A DNA stretch of 32,000 nucleotides from Moraxella nasicaprae (GTDB lineage Bacteria; Pseudomonadota; Gammaproteobacteria; Pseudomonadales; Moraxellaceae): contig NZ_CP089977.1 in the NCBI RefSeq assembly GCF_025643275.1, positions 180,001 through 212,000 on the forward strand, in the 5' to 3' direction. Under the pieces are notes generated by a model that was not told the origin of the DNA, did not search any database, and saw only the letters and a program-made list of their open reading frames with translations. Each line of letters starts with the position of its first letter. Position 1 is the first letter of the stretch. The position numbers and the translations under genes were made by a program. Below are positions 15,714-32,000 of the stretch, in pieces.

Positions 15714-18464
15714 TCATCGATTTGGCACAGTCAAAACCTGTCCGATGCGTAGATTGGCAGATGGTTCAAGATGGTTCATCTTAGCCAATTCTTCGACAGA
15801 AATGCCATAACGGCGAGCCAAAGAAATCAAACCATCGCCAGCTTTGACGGTGTAGCTTGTGGTCAGTTTTGGTAGCTTAATCCCCTGTCCCACACGCAAA
15901 GAAGCATTGGCTGGCAAACCATTTAAACTTGCCAATTCCGTCAGTGAAACACCAGCACGATTTGCCAGTGCTGTCAAACTATCGCCCGCCTTAACGGTAT
16001 AATTTTCAGTAGCGATGTTGCGAGTATTACCTTTGGTAGGTTTGGCAGCCTCCACCCTCTCCACTTTCGCTGTCGAAACGGCTGGTTTTGCCTGAGCTGA
16101 TTGTCCTGCTTGTGATGGTAGTTTTAGAGTTTGTCCAATTTGTACGCCATCGGTGGTAGAAAGATTATTTTCACTTGCCAATGCAGGTAGACTGACATTA
16201 TATTTGCGAGCGATGACAGTTAGGTTTTCGCCTGCTTGTACCGTATGAGTATTTGGATTGGTGGTGGTTTTGGTTGGTGCTGGGGTATTAGCTGGTTTGG
16301 CTGGTTGAGCAGTTGGTTTTACTTTACCAGCAACAAGCCATAGACGCTGACCAATCAAAATATGGGCATCGCTGGCTAAGTTGTTATAACTTGCCAATTG
16401 TCCAACAGTCAGACCATTGGCAGCAGCAACAGAAGTTAGGCTATCGCCAGCTTTGACGGTGTAGCTTTCGGGTTTTGGTACATTTTTTGCCACTTCCACT
16501 TTCTCCACTTTTGCTGTCGAAACGGCTGGTTTTGCCTGAGCTGATTGTCCTGCTTGTGATGGTAGTTTTAGAGTTTGTCCAATTTGTACGCCATCGGTGG
16601 TAGAAAGATTATTTTCACTTGCCAATGCAGGTAGACTGACATTATATTTGCGAGCGATGACAGTTAGGTTTTCGCCTGCTTGTACCGTATGAGTATTTGG
16701 ATTGGTGGTGGTTTTGGTTGGTGCTGGGGTATTAGCTGGTTTGGCTGGTTGAGCAGTTGGTTTTACTTTACCAGCAACAAGCCATAGACGCTGACCAATC
16801 AAAATATGGGCATCGCTGGCTAAGTTGTTATAACTTGCCAATTGTCCAACAGTCAGACCATTGGCAGCAGCAACAGAAGTTAGGCTATCGCCAGCTTTGA
16901 CGGTGTAGCTTTCAGGTTTTGGTGCAGGCTTGGTTGTTTTTGGCGTACTTGCCTTGACAGGTGTAGCTTGCTCCGCTGGCTTGGTATGATTTTGAGCAGG
17001 TGGTAGCTGTGGCTTAACAGGTGCTTGTGGTGCAGAATTAGCAAAACTAATGCTCTTATTCTCGCCACGAGCGTCCAATACCGACTGACCGGTTTGTACT
17101 GCTTCTAGCTGAATATTGCCATCTTGTGGATTGACCGCCTGTACTCGTTCAGCACTTTGTGCTTGGATTTGAGCAGCGATAAAATCTCGCTCCTCTGTCG
17201 ATAAAGCAGGCTCCTGAATGATGGTGTTATTTGGCGTTACCTGTGCAATGGTGGTTGGCAAGGTATTTGACCGAATCAATTCTTGCTGAGAATTTTGGTT
17301 GCTGCCTGCACCTGATTTTGGCAAGACATAATCCACACTTTGTGCTGGTGCTGTCGCCACATAATCACCACCATAGCCATAGCCTGCCAGTGCAGACAAG
17401 TTGGCGTCAAGCGAATTTGGGACGCTGTCTGGAATGACAATTCGGTTTGGTCCTGCGGCATCGACCGTGTGATTTAATAAAGCTGGGTTTAATAGGCGTA
17501 ACTCATCAAATGACACGCCCGTGACTGATGATACTTCGCTTAGGCTCACACCATAATTGACAGGCACAGTTCTAAAATGACTGTGATTGGCAATGGCTGG
17601 CAAGTACACCCCGTAAGTCTCTGGCGAACTGACAATCTGAGATACCGCCAAAAATCTAGGCACATAGTTCATCGTCTCGGTTGGCAATCTTAGCGACCAA
17701 TAGTCGGTTGGCAATCCTTCGGCTTGGTTTGCTTTGATTGCCTTAGAAATGCGTCCAGGACCTGCATTATAAGCCGCCAATGCCAATTCCCATGAGCCAA
17801 ATTGATTATACAAACTGGTCAAAAAGTCATAAGCGGCACGAGTGGATTCAATCACATCTCGGCGACCATCGTAGCTATCACTTTGGTTTAGGCCATAGAT
17901 ACGCCCTGTGCTAGGGATAAACTGCCAAAGTCCAGCGGCTGCTGCATTACTGGTGGCTGATGGGTCGTAGGAACTCTCAATGATGGGTAGCAGTGCCAAT
18001 TCTGATGGAATGCCTCGTCTTTCTGCCTCAGCAACCGTGTGATGCAAATAGCGAGAGGCTCTGGCAGTCAAACGATCCAAATAACTTTGGCGAGTATAAA
18101 ACCAAGATTTTTGGGCTTCGATTCTGGCGTTGGTTGTCTCAGGAATACGATAGCCACGACGGATACGCTCCCATAAGTTGCCATAGCGTTGTACAGCAAG
18201 CTCGTCGCCCTCCACCATCGTCACATCAGAGGCTTCAAGCAAATCCTCCAACAAAGACAAAGTAGCTGGATCTAATTGACTATCTGCTGTGGTGGTTGAT
18301 GTGGTAGGTGGGCTTGCTGGCTTGCTTGTCACAACCGTCTTGGCAGGTGCGGATTTTGCTGGGGTTGTACCAGTGCTGCTACACGCCACCAAAATACAAG
18401 ACGAAATCGCCACAGTCAGTGGTTTTAGAAGAGGGAAATTGGCGGTAGTCTTTGGGCTAATCAT
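15714..18464 (-). CDS. mltD: MltD-like lytic transglycosylase lipoprotein with six C-terminal LysM domains
   Basis: The lipoprotein signal is LTVAISSCILVAC-SS. The SLT region is LLPIIESSYDPSATSNAAAAGLWQFIPSTG...LALAAYNAGPG. Six LysM units follow (YTVKAGDSL...IGQRLWL, HTVQAGENL...IGQTLKLP, those two repeated, then two more divergent units). E. coli MltD has two LysM domains. Confidence 0.9.
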   Translation of the reverse strand: MISPKTTANFPLLKPLTVAISSCILVACSSTGTTPAKSAPAKTVVTSKPASPPTTSTTTADSQLDPATLSLLEDLLEASDVTMVEGDELAVQRYGNLWERIRRGYRIPETTNARIEAQKSWFYTRQSYLDRLTARASRYLHHTVAEAERRGIPSELALLPIIESSYDPSATSNAAAAGLWQFIPSTGRIYGLNQSDSYDGRRDVIESTRAAYDFLTSLYNQFGSWELALAAYNAGPGRISKAIKANQAEGLPTDYWSLRLPTETMNYVPRFLAVSQIVSSPETYGVYLPAIANHSHFRTVPVNYGVSLSEVSSVTGVSFDELRLLNPALLNHTVDAAGPNRIVIPDSVPNSLDANLSALAGYGYGGDYVATAPAQSVDYVLPKSGAGSNQNSQQELIRSNTLPTTIAQVTPNNTIIQEPALSTEERDFIAAQIQAQSAERVQAVNPQDGNIQLEAVQTGQSVLDARGENKSISFANSAPQAPVKPQLPPAQNHTKPAEQATPVKASTPKTTKPAPKPESYTVKAGDSLTSVAAANGLTVGQLASYNNLASDAHILIGQRLWLVAGKVKPTAQPAKPANTPAPTKTTTNPNTHTVQAGENLTVIARKYNVSLPALASENNLSTTDGVQIGQTLKLPSQAGQSAQAKPAVSTAKVEKVEVAKNVPKPESYTVKAGDSLTSVAAANGLTVGQLASYNNLASDAHILIGQRLWLVAGKVKPTAQPAKPANTPAPTKTTTNPNTHTVQAGENLTVIARKYNVSLPALASENNLSTTDGVQIGQTLKLPSQAGQSAQAKPAVSTAKVERVEAAKPTKGNTRNIATENYTVKAGDSLTALANRAGVSLTELASLNGLPANASLRVGQGIKLPKLTTSYTVKAGDGLISLARRYGISVEELAKMNHLEPSANLRIGQVLTVPNR
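16041..16923 (-). repeat. In-frame tandem duplication inside the MltD-like gene, 2 x 444 bp (148 codons)
   Basis: Positions 16071-16469 are, by my base-by-base reading, identical to 16515-16913 (399 nt, offset exactly 444). The first mismatch is at 16470/16914 and the flanks are progressively diverged. Each unit encodes two LysM domains plus Pro/Thr/Ala-rich linkers. Confidence 0.95.
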
Positions 18465-24047: not shown

Positions 24048-24139
24048 AGCATTGCCTTGATTGTTTTATTATTTAAAAGGCATTATAGCAAAAATTGTGA
24101 ATTTTTAAAATGCACCATCATACACTGATTGACAAATCA

Positions 24140-24535
24140 TCAGTTTTGGCAGGATTTTTGAACAATGACATCAATCCAAGTGTTTGGCACCACAGGTCTG
24201 TACTTAACCAACATACCAGTATTAACTGCCAACATACGACCACTGCTATCATATTGAGTCATGCTCTTGATACCAACTGTTCTAGAATCGCAGTCAATAT
24301 GCCAATTATCCAATCGATACCCACCCTGCCCCATGTCGCTTGCGGCTAAGTTTTCAACCACTTCATTTTTTACCCAAACAGATTTTACATAGCGTCCACT
24401 ATCATAAACCCCCTTGGTTTGTTCATCAAGTATGCTCATGGAATAGCCGCTTAGACCGTCATAGCCAAGCTTGATTTCAGCAACCACCTGCTGACTTAGC
24501 CCAGCAAATAACAAACCTAGTAGTAATTTTTTCAT
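24140..24535 (-). CDS. Small secreted protein of unknown function (131 aa with signal peptide)
   Basis: MKKLLLGLLFAGLSQQVVA-EIK is a type I signal peptide with no lipobox Cys. The mature part has two Cys residues (HIDCDS, KSCQN). I chose the start at MKK (24535) and not the track's 24595. It appears monocistronic, with non-coding flanks of 92 bp and 212 bp. Confidence 0.55.
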   Translation of the reverse strand: MKKLLLGLLFAGLSQQVVAEIKLGYDGLSGYSMSILDEQTKGVYDSGRYVKSVWVKNEVVENLAASDMGQGGYRLDNWHIDCDSRTVGIKSMTQYDSSGRMLAVNTGMLVKYRPVVPNTWIDVIVQKSCQN

Positions 24536-24699
24536 AGGACAATCCTTAATTTTCACAATAAACTGTGGGTGTATTCTACATGATATACTGCCCATTTGTC
24601 ATCGCTTGATAGCACGCCTTTACGCTTAGTTTTGTATGTGTTTTTCAACAAATGTTTAGTTATTGTAACAATATAGCAACTCTTGTTTGACTAACTCAT

Positions 24700-29110: not shown

Positions 29111-30520
29111 TTAGCAGCGATAGTACAAATCAAACTCCAATGGATGCACCGCCTCGTTCATTTTTTGTACTTCTTGCATTTTTAGCTCGATGTAAGCATC
29201 AATCATCTCTTTACTAAATACATCGCCTTTTAGCAAGAAAGCATGGTCTTCTTTTAGTGCGTTTAGTGCCACTTCCAGATTTTCAGCAACGGTTGGAATT
29301 AGTGCCTCTTCTTCTGGTGGCAGGTCGTACAGGTTCTTATCTGCCGCCTCGCCTGGATTGATTTTATTTTCAATACCATCAATGCCAGCCATTAACAAGG
29401 CTGCAAAACACAGATAAGGGTTTGCCGCAGGGTCAGGGAAACGCACTTCGATACGCACCGCCTTAGGGCTAGACACATGCGGAATGCGAATTGATGCCGA
29501 GCGGTTGGACGCAGAATACGCAAGTTTAATCGGTGCTTCAAAATGCGGTACCAAACGCTTGTAGCTGTTGGTTGTCGGATTGGTGATGGCGTTCAACGCT
29601 CTGGCATGCTTAATCACACCACCAATGAAATACAGTGCTGTGGTTGAAAGTCCTGCATACTCATCGCCAGAAAAAGTATTCACACCATCTTTTGAAATGG
29701 AAATATGCACATGCATACCAGAACCATTATCGCCCACCATTGGCTTAGGCATAAAGGTGGCTGTCTTACCAAATTGGTTGGCAACATTTTGCACCACATA
29801 TTTAAACTGTTGAACTTCGTCCGCTTTTTTAACCAAAGTATTAAACGATACGCCAATCTCCAACTGACCTGACGCCACCTCGTGATGATGCACTTCTACT
29901 CTGCCCTCGCCCATCACATCTTCGATGCGTTCACACATGACTGCACGCATGTCGTGATAATGGTCAATCGGTGCGGTTACCGCATAAGCACCCTTGACAT
30001 GCGGACGCTGAGCATTGTTGCCCCACGCATAATCCTTATCGGTCGACCAAGCAGCCGCTTCTGAAATAATGGTGCTTCTAGCACCTGATTGGTCAATCGA
30101 CCATTTTACTTCATCAAAGACAAAAAATTCAGGCTCTGGCCCAAAAAAAGCCGTGTCGCCAATGCCTGTTGATTTTAGATAGGTTTCGGCACGACGAGCG
30201 ATTGAACGAGGGTCTTTGCCATAGCCTTGCAAAGTTTCTGGCTCAATGATGTCGCACGCCACCACCACAGTTGGTGCTTCATAAAATGGGTCAAGATATG
30301 CCGTCTGTGGGTCTGGACGCAAAATCATGTCAGACGCCTCCACACCTTTCCAGCCAGCCACGCTTGAAGCGTCAAACATTTTGCCGTCTTCTAGCGTATC
30401 CTCATCAACACTACTCGCTGGAAAAGTTAGGTGCATTTCTTTGCCGTGCGTGTCCGTAAAACGAAAATCCACCCATTTTGCACCTGATGATTCAATCAAA
30501 TCAAACAACTTATTTGACAT
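29111..30520 (-). CDS. glnA: Glutamine synthetase, type I
   Basis: The protein is 469 aa. [15 protein letters not shown]...[10 protein letters not shown]...[17 protein letters not shown]...[13 protein letters not shown]... are GSI signatures, including the NLYDLP adenylylation-loop tyrosine context. Confidence 0.97.
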
Positions 30521-30580
30521 ATCTATTCTCCATTAAAAGCCACAACCACCCCATAGGCGGTTAGATTATTCTTTGGCTTA

Positions 30581-30849
30581 TATCATACGCTAATTTTGTG
30601 CATTCGTAAAGTCTTATCATAATAAAAACTTATTAAATCATAGGAATTATTTATAAATAAAATTTTAGGCGTTATGTTCACAAGCCATCAATGGTACAAT
30701 GACATAAATATCATAATATATTGATTTTATTATAAAAATTCTTATTTTATCAATATCATATTAATAATATTATAAAATAAAATGTTAATAAAAATATCAA
30801 TAGGTTATTTTTATCATATAAAATTATTATATCATAAAAAAATATGATA
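30581..30849. repeat. Cluster of TATCATA heptamers in an extremely AT-rich block of the glnA-cas12a spacer
   Basis: TATCATA occurs at 30581, 30615, 30709, 30754, 30812 and 30830. AATCATA is at 30636 and the inverted copy TATGATA at 30843. The last forward and inverted copies form ATCATA-AAAAAA-TATGAT (30831-30848). Confidence 0.6.
30582..30610 (-). promoter_or_regulatory. Candidate sigma-70 promoter for glnA
   Basis: On the minus strand TTTACG (30610-30605), a 17-nt spacer and TATGAT (30587-30582) lie about 60 nt upstream of the glnA ATG. This is a pattern call only. I did not see a sigma-54 (GG-N10-GC) element. Confidence 0.3.
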
Positions 30850-31029
30850 AAAATCTGCCAATTTCTTAAAGCCTGATAGCAGCTTATTTGACATACACCC
30901 CCTTGTTAAACCATCAGAATAAATACGACTACTCATACTACCTATGGTTGCAAATACATCACGCCTCCAGATTTGTTATTTTGCGACGGCAAGGCCTTGC
31001 CATAAAGTCACTGGTAATCATACAGTAAA

Positions 31030-31058
31030 TTGGTAAAGTCTGTTTTTTTATTATATAA
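31030..31058 (+). promoter_or_regulatory. Candidate sigma-70 promoter for cas12a
   Basis: TTGGTA (31030-31035), a 17-nt T-rich spacer, then a consensus TATAAT (31053-31058), 44 nt upstream of the cas12a ATG. This is a pattern call only. Confidence 0.4.
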
Positions 31059-31101
31059 TTTGTATCTCATTTCTATGTTTTTATCAATCAAAGGATTGTC
31101 T

Positions 31102-32000
31102 ATGCTATTTGCAAACTTCACTAAGCAATACCCACTTTCCAAAACCTTGCGTTTTGAGTTAAAACCAATTGGCAAAACCTTAGGGCACATTCAAGCCAAA
31201 AACTTTTTGGAGAAAGATGCAACCCTTGCCGAAAATTATCAAAAAATCAAACCGATTCTTGATGATTATCATCGTGATTTTATAGAGCAGGCATTAAATG
31301 ATGTGGCGTTGTTGGCGTTGGCAGATTTTCAAAGCCACTATTTAGCACTCAAACAAAATAAAAATGATGATAAGCTGCGTAAAGCCTTAGAAAAATCACA
31401 AGAGCAATTACGCAAAGCCATTGTCAAACAATTTAAAAAAGATGAACAAACCAAAGCCTTATTTGAAAGTTTATTCGCCAAAGAATTGTTTGGTAATCAC
31501 AAAGAATACGGAAATTTGGTTAAATGGATTATCCAAAAAGAAGGTGAAAACTCGCCAAACATCGCCCTTGTGCAACAGTTTATTGGTTTTACGACTTATT
31601 TTACAGGTTTTTATGAAAACCGTAAAAATCTTTATAGTGATGAAGCCAAGCATACTGCCATCGTTTATCGCTTAATTCACGAGAATTTACCAAGATTTGT
31701 GGATAATATTCAGATTTTAAGTCAAATTAAAGATAAATATGATGATTTATATCAACAACTTAAGCAATTAGATAGTCAAATCACTACTTATTTCGATGAT
31801 TTTAAGATTGATGATTTGTTGGATATTGATTTTTATAGTCGGCTTTTAACCCAATCTAGTATTACCGCTTATAATGCCTTATTGGGTGGAAAGGTTTTGG
31901 ATAATGGTACAAAGTTGCAAGGTATCAATGAACTGATTAACCTATTCAACCAAAAGCATAAAACCAAAATCGCCAAATTAAAATCATTACATAAACAAAT
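31102..32000 (+). CDS. cas12a: Cas12a (Cpf1) type V-A CRISPR effector nuclease, N-terminal 299 codons (WED-I plus REC lobe). The gene continues beyond the right window edge.
   Basis: This ORF is not in the supplied track because it has no stop in the window. ATG 31102 follows AAGGA (31091-31095), and I translated 299 codons without a stop: MLFANFTKQYPLSKTLRFELKPIGKTLGHIQAKNFLEKDATLAENYQKIKPILDDYHRDFIEQALN...FIGFTTYFTGFYENRKNLYSDEAKHTAIVYRLIHENLPRFVDNIQIL...SSITAYNALLGGKVLDNGTKLQGINELINLFNQKHKTKIAKLKSLHKQ. These blocks (Y.LSKT.RFEL.P.G.T, DYHR.FI, F..FTTYF.GF..NRKN.YS.E...TAI.YR....NLP.F..N, I..YN..LGG...G.NE.IN...Q......L..L.KQ) are the conserved N-terminal blocks of Cas12a that I recall from the Fn, As, Lb and especially Moraxella bovoculi enzymes. 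Confidence 0.93.
   Translation, partial: MLFANFTKQYPLSKTLRFELKPIGKTLGHIQAKNFLEKDATLAENYQKIKPILDDYHRDFIEQALNDVALLALADFQSHYLALKQNKNDDKLRKALEKSQEQLRKAIVKQFKKDEQTKALFESLFAKELFGNHKEYGNLVKWIIQKEGENSPNIALVQQFIGFTTYFTGFYENRKNLYSDEAKHTAIVYRLIHENLPRFVDNIQILSQIKDKYDDLYQQLKQLDSQITTYFDDFKIDDLLDIDFYSRLLTQSSITAYNALLGGKVLDNGTKLQGINELINLFNQKHKTKIAKLKSLHKQ

Follow-up and report, generated by a model that had tools for sequence, protein, structure and literature searches.

Cas12a (Cpf1), the effector of type V-A CRISPR systems, has been a well understood protein family since 2015. In its solved structures, the WED-I and REC1 regions help to hold the 5' handle of the crRNA and the heteroduplex of crRNA and target DNA. 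The 3' end of type V-A repeats forms a handle with the structure UCUACU-loop-GUAGAU, and a tracrRNA is not involved. The enzyme of Moraxella bovoculi, MbCas12a, belongs to the described members of the family, and published work has revealed that AcrVA5 acetylates a lysine of its PI domain.

The window, i.e., the whole stretch of 32,000 nucleotides of Moraxella nasicaprae DNA that was analyzed, ends with a stop-free frame of 299 codons, which translation revealed on the forward strand (31102-32000). It is missing from the list of open reading frames because it runs off the window end. The initial annotation had described both the 299 uninterrupted codons from the ATG at 31102 and the omission from the list, and it had assigned the frame to the N-terminus of a Cas12a. 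This assignment was verified by profile and structure searches. The sole Pfam match was the REC1 helical domain (PF18501), which was found at amino acids 47-299 of the fragment with 249 bits (cutoff 37.4, E=8.4e-74) and covered profile positions 1-249 of 250. The sole NCBIfam match was the Cas12a/Cpf1 equivalog TIGR04330 (E=3.2e-79, model positions 1-294 of 1288); the fragment alone reached 267 bits and stayed under the cutoff of 300 bits solely for lack of the other three quarters of the protein. In addition, the fragment could be aligned from residue 1 with 26 distinct solved Cas12a chains, and the best match was 6iv6_A (E=1.6e-90), the sequence of which is MbCas12a (the same as P0127, 1261 aa).

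The peptide blocks quoted by the initial annotation were all present in the order given, i.e., YPLSKTLRFELKPIGKT, DYHRDFI, FIGFTTYFTGFYENRKNLYSDEAKHTAIVYRLIHENLPRFVDN, and ITAYNALLGG...GINELINLFNQ...LKSLHKQ, and the M. bovoculi start that it had given (MLFQDFTHLYPLSKT) was correct according to the 6iv6_A alignment and to P0127. The WED-I strand presumably comprises about amino acids 1-25 of the fragment, a boundary that was adopted from published Cas12a structures. Taken together, the fragment is an ordinary Cas12a, and no departure from the family was found within the 299 codons. Judged from the sequence, the frame is very probably (about 95%) the 5' quarter of the M. nasicaprae cas12a gene, which would encode the effector of a type V-A locus inserted beside glnA.

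A Shine-Dalgarno-like AAGGA (31091-31095, forward strand) was read directly 6 nt before the ATG at 31102, at the site where the initial annotation had placed it. The MLF encoded from 31102 onward is also the start of the deposited protein described below and of all orthologues. A second in-frame ATG is located at 31075, nine codons upstream, and the nearest preceding stop codon of the frame is at 31015. Upstream of the ATG at 31075 no Shine-Dalgarno sequence was found. For one relative, P0111, the gene caller had taken the codon equivalent to this ATG (MFLSIKGLSMLF...), and because of the missing Shine-Dalgarno sequence the upstream start is probably an annotation artefact.

The fragment was identical at 299 of 299 positions to a deposited protein of 1264 aa, P0112, which is the Cas12a/Cpf1 of M. 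nasicaprae and is encoded in a record of 2,106,666 bp. It is available under the accessions UXZ05043.1 and WP_263076545.1 (type V CRISPR-associated protein Cas12a/Cpf1) as well as UniRef100_A0ABY6F4M0; it is the same gene as that of the window, and no difference was detectable. Three further proteins of the window were found in the same record with exact matches, i.e., GlnA (UXZ05042.1), RadA (UXZ05041.1), and a LysM protein of 916 aa (UXZ05029.1). No exact database match was obtained for two of the five window ORFs that were looked up, most likely because the ORF list takes the first possible start codon. About a quarter of the gene is present in the window, as had been estimated (299 of 1264 codons), and the gene extends past the window end at 32000. 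The frame very probably does not end shortly after the edge, as the identical deposited protein has the full length of 1264 aa. With the 299-aa query only proteins of at most 520 aa were returned, and P0112 was retrieved with the 1277-aa Cas12a of a relative (L002) as query.

The exact protein is thus already in GenBank, RefSeq, and UniRef under its correct name, and the value that the initial annotation had seen in a new ortholog did not stand. In a literature search no paper carrying an accession of P0112 was found, and the only papers found on M. nasicaprae were taxonomy papers. A metagenome scan with P0112 yielded no relative.

The PI, RuvC, and Nuc parts, which had been predicted to lie beyond position 32000, were all present in P0112. 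The full-length protein reached 1367.8 bits on TIGR04330 (cutoff 300) and covered model positions 1-1287 of 1288, and its alignments to the Mb, Lb, Fn, and As Cas12a proteins were significant. Pfam revealed REC1 at amino acids 47-300, REC2 at 316-554, PI (Cpf1_PI-like) at 629-719 (E=3e-36), RuvC_1 at 851-1263 (E=7e-102), and NUC at 1051-1209 (E=9e-52). The RuvC D/E/D triad is intact, with D878 in IDRGER, E972 in LEDLN, and D1219 in DADANGAY, and the same is true for the Nuc motif LRYSN with R1182. The lysine loop of the PI domain, GPNKMLPKVFF at amino acids 630-640, is of the canonical Mb type. A comparison of motif and spacing showed that H802, K811, and K828 have the same distances (+9, +26) as H843, K852, and K869 of FnCas12a, the RNase residues in the numbering of published work. 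The reference numbers for the RuvC, Nuc, and RNase residues are likewise those of published work on the Fn, Lb, and As enzymes.

By analogy with the characterized enzymes, the M. nasicaprae Cas12a would be expected to combine pre-crRNA processing with crRNA-guided, PAM-dependent cleavage of double-stranded DNA. First, it would cut its own pre-crRNA at the RNase site of the WED domain, which was assigned by motif spacing (H802/K811/K828). Second, a T-rich PAM would be read by the PI domain with its canonical Mb-type loop (630-640), together with WED and REC1. The target would then be unwound, and the R-loop would be held by REC1 and REC2. Last, both DNA strands would be cut by the single RuvC site (D878, E972, D1219), with the assistance of Nuc (R1182).

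Adaptation genes had also been predicted to follow beyond the window. Clusters of the Cas proteins of relatives were used, and they showed that the M. nasicaprae record with Cas12a also includes two adaptation proteins, a Cas4 of type V with 188 aa (UXZ05044.1) and a Cas2 with 89 aa (UXZ05046.1), the accession numbers of which come right after that of Cas12a. The accession run UXZ05041-UXZ05046 comprises radA, glnA, cas12a, cas4, UXZ05045, and cas2, and according to the consecutive numbers the genes would lie in this order. We infer that UXZ05045 is cas1 and that M. nasicaprae has a CRISPR array. In a Cas1 search no M. nasicaprae Cas1 was among the matches listed. This was rejected as evidence of absence, as the Cas1 of M. 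haemolytica, which exists, was also not listed under its own name. The Cas12a repeat handle, with two mismatches allowed, was found nowhere within the 32-kb window, which says nothing about the array because it is expected downstream of cas2 and, thus, outside the window. Rfam and tRNA scans of the window found nothing.

The further course of the locus could be read in three relatives, i.e., L016 (Logan SRR30679790), L002 (the Moraxella sp. metagenome-assembled genome NZ_JAUNDY010000019), and L017 (M. haemolytica CP089974). L016 shares the neighboring genes of the window, and its radA and glnA are followed by cas12a, cas4 (TIGR04328, E=2e-72), and a cas1 (TIGR04329) that is cut by the contig end. 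L002 and L017 contain complete cas12a-cas4-cas1-cas2 operons, and in both cases an array of 36-nt repeats lies directly after cas2. The repeat of L002 is GTCTAACGACTTTATTTAATTTCTACTATTGTAGAT with about 18 copies, and that of L017 is GTCTAACGACCTTCCTTAATTTCTACTATTGTAGAT with about 28 copies. The two repeats share the ending TCTACTATTGTAGAT, and both end with AATTTCTACTATTGTAGAT, which is the Cas12a handle.

The core-genome neighbor of cas12a is glnA (29111-30520, reverse strand), which encodes a type I glutamine synthetase with the domains Gln-synt_N and Gln-synt_C. The two genes are divergent, i.e., glnA is transcribed away from cas12a, and they are separated by a spacer of 581 bp with a G+C content of 26.5% (30521-31101). 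The cas12a frame has a G+C content of 32.5%, versus 46.2% for glnA, 51.1% for radA, and 44.3% for window positions 1-30520, and thus the higher AT content noticed by the initial annotation was confirmed. The spacer was 93% identical with that of L016 and only 65% identical with that of L001, a sister strain (Logan SRR23387594). The part of the spacer nearest to cas12a (30862-31078) had no similarity to the respective region L001:9844-9976 (216 bp versus 132 bp) and was 93% identical with L016; within this part lies a short inverted repeat of high G+C content (gcgacggcaaggccttgcc). A candidate sigma-70 promoter for cas12a consists of TTGGTA, a spacing of 18 nt, and TATAAT (31030-31059, forward strand), has 10 of 12 matches to the consensus hexamers, and ends 43 nt upstream of the cas12a start. 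In the AT-rich spacer six promoter-like sites were found versus 6.1 expected from shuffled sequences; this pair as cas12a promoter is put forward as a suggestion, not as a finding.

The nucleotide similarity between the window and L002 begins only at 31091, 11 nt before the start codon. In L002 the type V-A module lies beside cysG, and because the similarity to this copy starts at 31091, this position marks the left edge of the module. The similarity to the cas12a of L001 begins at 31078. Three chromosomal sites of the module were observed: M. nasicaprae shares the site by glnA with L016 and L001, in L002 the module lies by cysG, and in L017 it has an amino-acid permease gene on one side and a BCCT transporter gene on the other. 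In L016, L002, and L017 the module has a G+C content of 30-33%, versus 42-44% for its flanks. The cas12a genes of the window and L016 were 87% identical, the glnA genes 97%, and among the three genomes with the glnA site cas12a was generally far more diverged than its flanks. The low G+C content, the three sites, the similarity edge 11 nt before the start, and the divergence of cas12a all support the horizontal acquisition that the initial annotation had proposed, and they would fit a horizontally moving, recombining defence module.

The sister strain L001 has the same gene order as the window, i.e., hfq, miaA, tsaE, a queD-like gene, the genes for a saccharopine dehydrogenase and a decarboxylase, radA, and glnA, with 94-97% nucleotide identity. 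Between the queD-like and the saccharopine dehydrogenase genes, the window (24098-24697) carries about 500 bp that are absent from L001 and L016; an ORF of 151 aa in this extra segment (24140-24595, reverse strand) had no Pfam match. The cas12a of L001 (P0001, L001:10001-11338) is a complete ORF of 445 aa, which is 96% identical to the fragment on the amino acid level and 95% on the nucleotide level. Its frame ends with codon 445 (…SIADY-stop), exactly where the similarity to the full-length genes stops. Up to position 16859 it is followed by convergent unrelated genes, i.e., a formyltransferase-like gene, a DNA methylase gene, a gene with the endolysin-like domain Peptidase_M15_3, and a DUF4376 gene, which suggests a prophage end. 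Neither cas4, cas1, cas2 nor an array was found on the L001 contig. As far as can be read from these contigs, the type V-A locus varies between strains, and the module appears to have been lost from L001 by deletion or replacement.

The clear instability of the locus in this lineage bears on the question whether the M. nasicaprae system is complete. Its effector and adaptation genes could be intact and the system nevertheless orphaned or inactive, with an array after cas2 that is absent or vestigial, and the lack of a Cas12a-type repeat handle anywhere in the 32-kb window would agree with this. However, both relatives that are readable past cas2 have their arrays directly after this gene, and M. 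nasicaprae has kept Cas4 and Cas2 as intact proteins, which makes an orphaned system unlikely.

The relatives also differ in the PI domain. P0112 was compared with P0111 and with the Cas12a of L002 (10001-13834), and it was found that the 50-aa flanks of the PI region are 90-100% identical, while amino acids 625-697 are only 8-29% identical. At least three PI versions exist among P0112, P0111, L002, P0113, P0118, and P0119 (compared over P0112 amino acids 625-745). In the version of L002, P0111, and P0113 the lysine loop GPNKMLPKVFF is replaced; for L002 and P0111, the Pfam PI domain matched only over its C-terminal two thirds. The third version, that of P0118 and P0119, had no Pfam PI match. 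A literature search yielded nothing specific on natural PI-domain swapping in Moraxella. A tentative explanation, to which we give clearly less than even odds, would be that the Moraxella Cas12a clade swaps its PI domain as a cassette, in a locus that hops between sites and gets deleted. If true, PAM specificity would be diversified in nature through recombination, and the swaps might also serve to evade anti-CRISPRs directed at the PI lysine.

The mosaic structure of the related genes, with their very similar flanks and their dissimilar PI regions, also allows for the window to stem from another M. nasicaprae strain than the deposited record, with an identical N-terminus and a different downstream gene or locus, e.g., with another PI-domain cassette. 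The two window ORFs without an exact database match would be in line with this. On the other side, four window proteins distributed over 16 kb (the LysM protein, RadA, GlnA, and the N-terminus of Cas12a) have exact counterparts in one record, whereas relatives that share the gene order of the window differ from it in 3-7% of the nucleotides over the same genes. A different strain is thus very improbable, and P0112 is retained as the full-length product of the window's gene.

The 445-aa P0001 was also considered as a model for the gene of the window and was rejected, because the identity of 299 of 299 positions is to the 1264-aa P0112. Least probable of all is that the gene of the window is cut off and decaying, as in L001. 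P0001 is indeed closer to the 299 aa than any other relative except P0112, has the same neighboring genes, and breaks off where the similarity stops and unrelated convergent genes begin, but it differs from the fragment at 11 positions, whereas the 1264-aa protein is 100% identical. In addition, the record of the full-length protein includes exact counterparts of the window's GlnA and RadA under neighboring accession numbers, and Cas4 and Cas2 follow there. The edge frame is, thus, best read as the beginning of a full-length cas12a. Disrupted frames were observed elsewhere in this Cas12a lineage. On one Logan contig of 8030 bp the gene is split into two ORFs of 191 and 1078 aa (P0004 and P0114), and two further Logan ORFs (P0002 and P0005) continue out of frame after about 150-180 aa. 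Such sequences could be pseudogenes with frameshifts, or they could result from errors in assembly.

The significance of the gene as such is small, as the protein is deposited, was machine-annotated as Cas12a, and belongs to a well understood family. A modest value lies in the orthologue itself, which is uncharacterized in the searchable literature and, being 60% identical to MbCas12a, is a candidate for genome-editing surveys. A further modest value lies in the module, which has a low G+C content, is found at differing sites in Moraxella, is deleted in a sister strain, and has a mosaic PI domain in the relatives.

Among the known systems, MbCas12a (6iv6_A) aligned end to end with P0112. Both proteins are composed of the same five domains and begin alike (MLF..F..YPLSKT), and their PI domains are 79% identical, including the PAM-reading loop GPNKMLPKVFF. 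In contrast, the identity was only 54% over the 299 aa of the fragment and 60% overall, and the REC1 and REC2 helices were most divergent, with 30-50% in several windows of 50 aa. As the initial annotation had supposed, the M. nasicaprae Cas12a is a distinct orthologue; it is not a strain variant of MbCas12a. LbCas12a, FnCas12a, and AsCas12a (e.g., 5xus, 5nfv, and 5b43) belong to the same TIGR04330 family and have WED, REC1, REC2, PI, RuvC, and Nuc in the same order. Their similarity was much lower; the E values were 1e-274 to 1e-193 with the full P0112 and only 5e-51 to 1e-41 with the N-terminal fragment, and their RuvC D/E/D, Nuc arginine, and RNase His/Lys/Lys motifs are conserved in P0112. 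The Cas12a proteins of L016, L002, and L017 were 78-82% identical overall; L016 shares the glnA site with M. nasicaprae, and both L016 and L002 carry a different PI-domain cassette.
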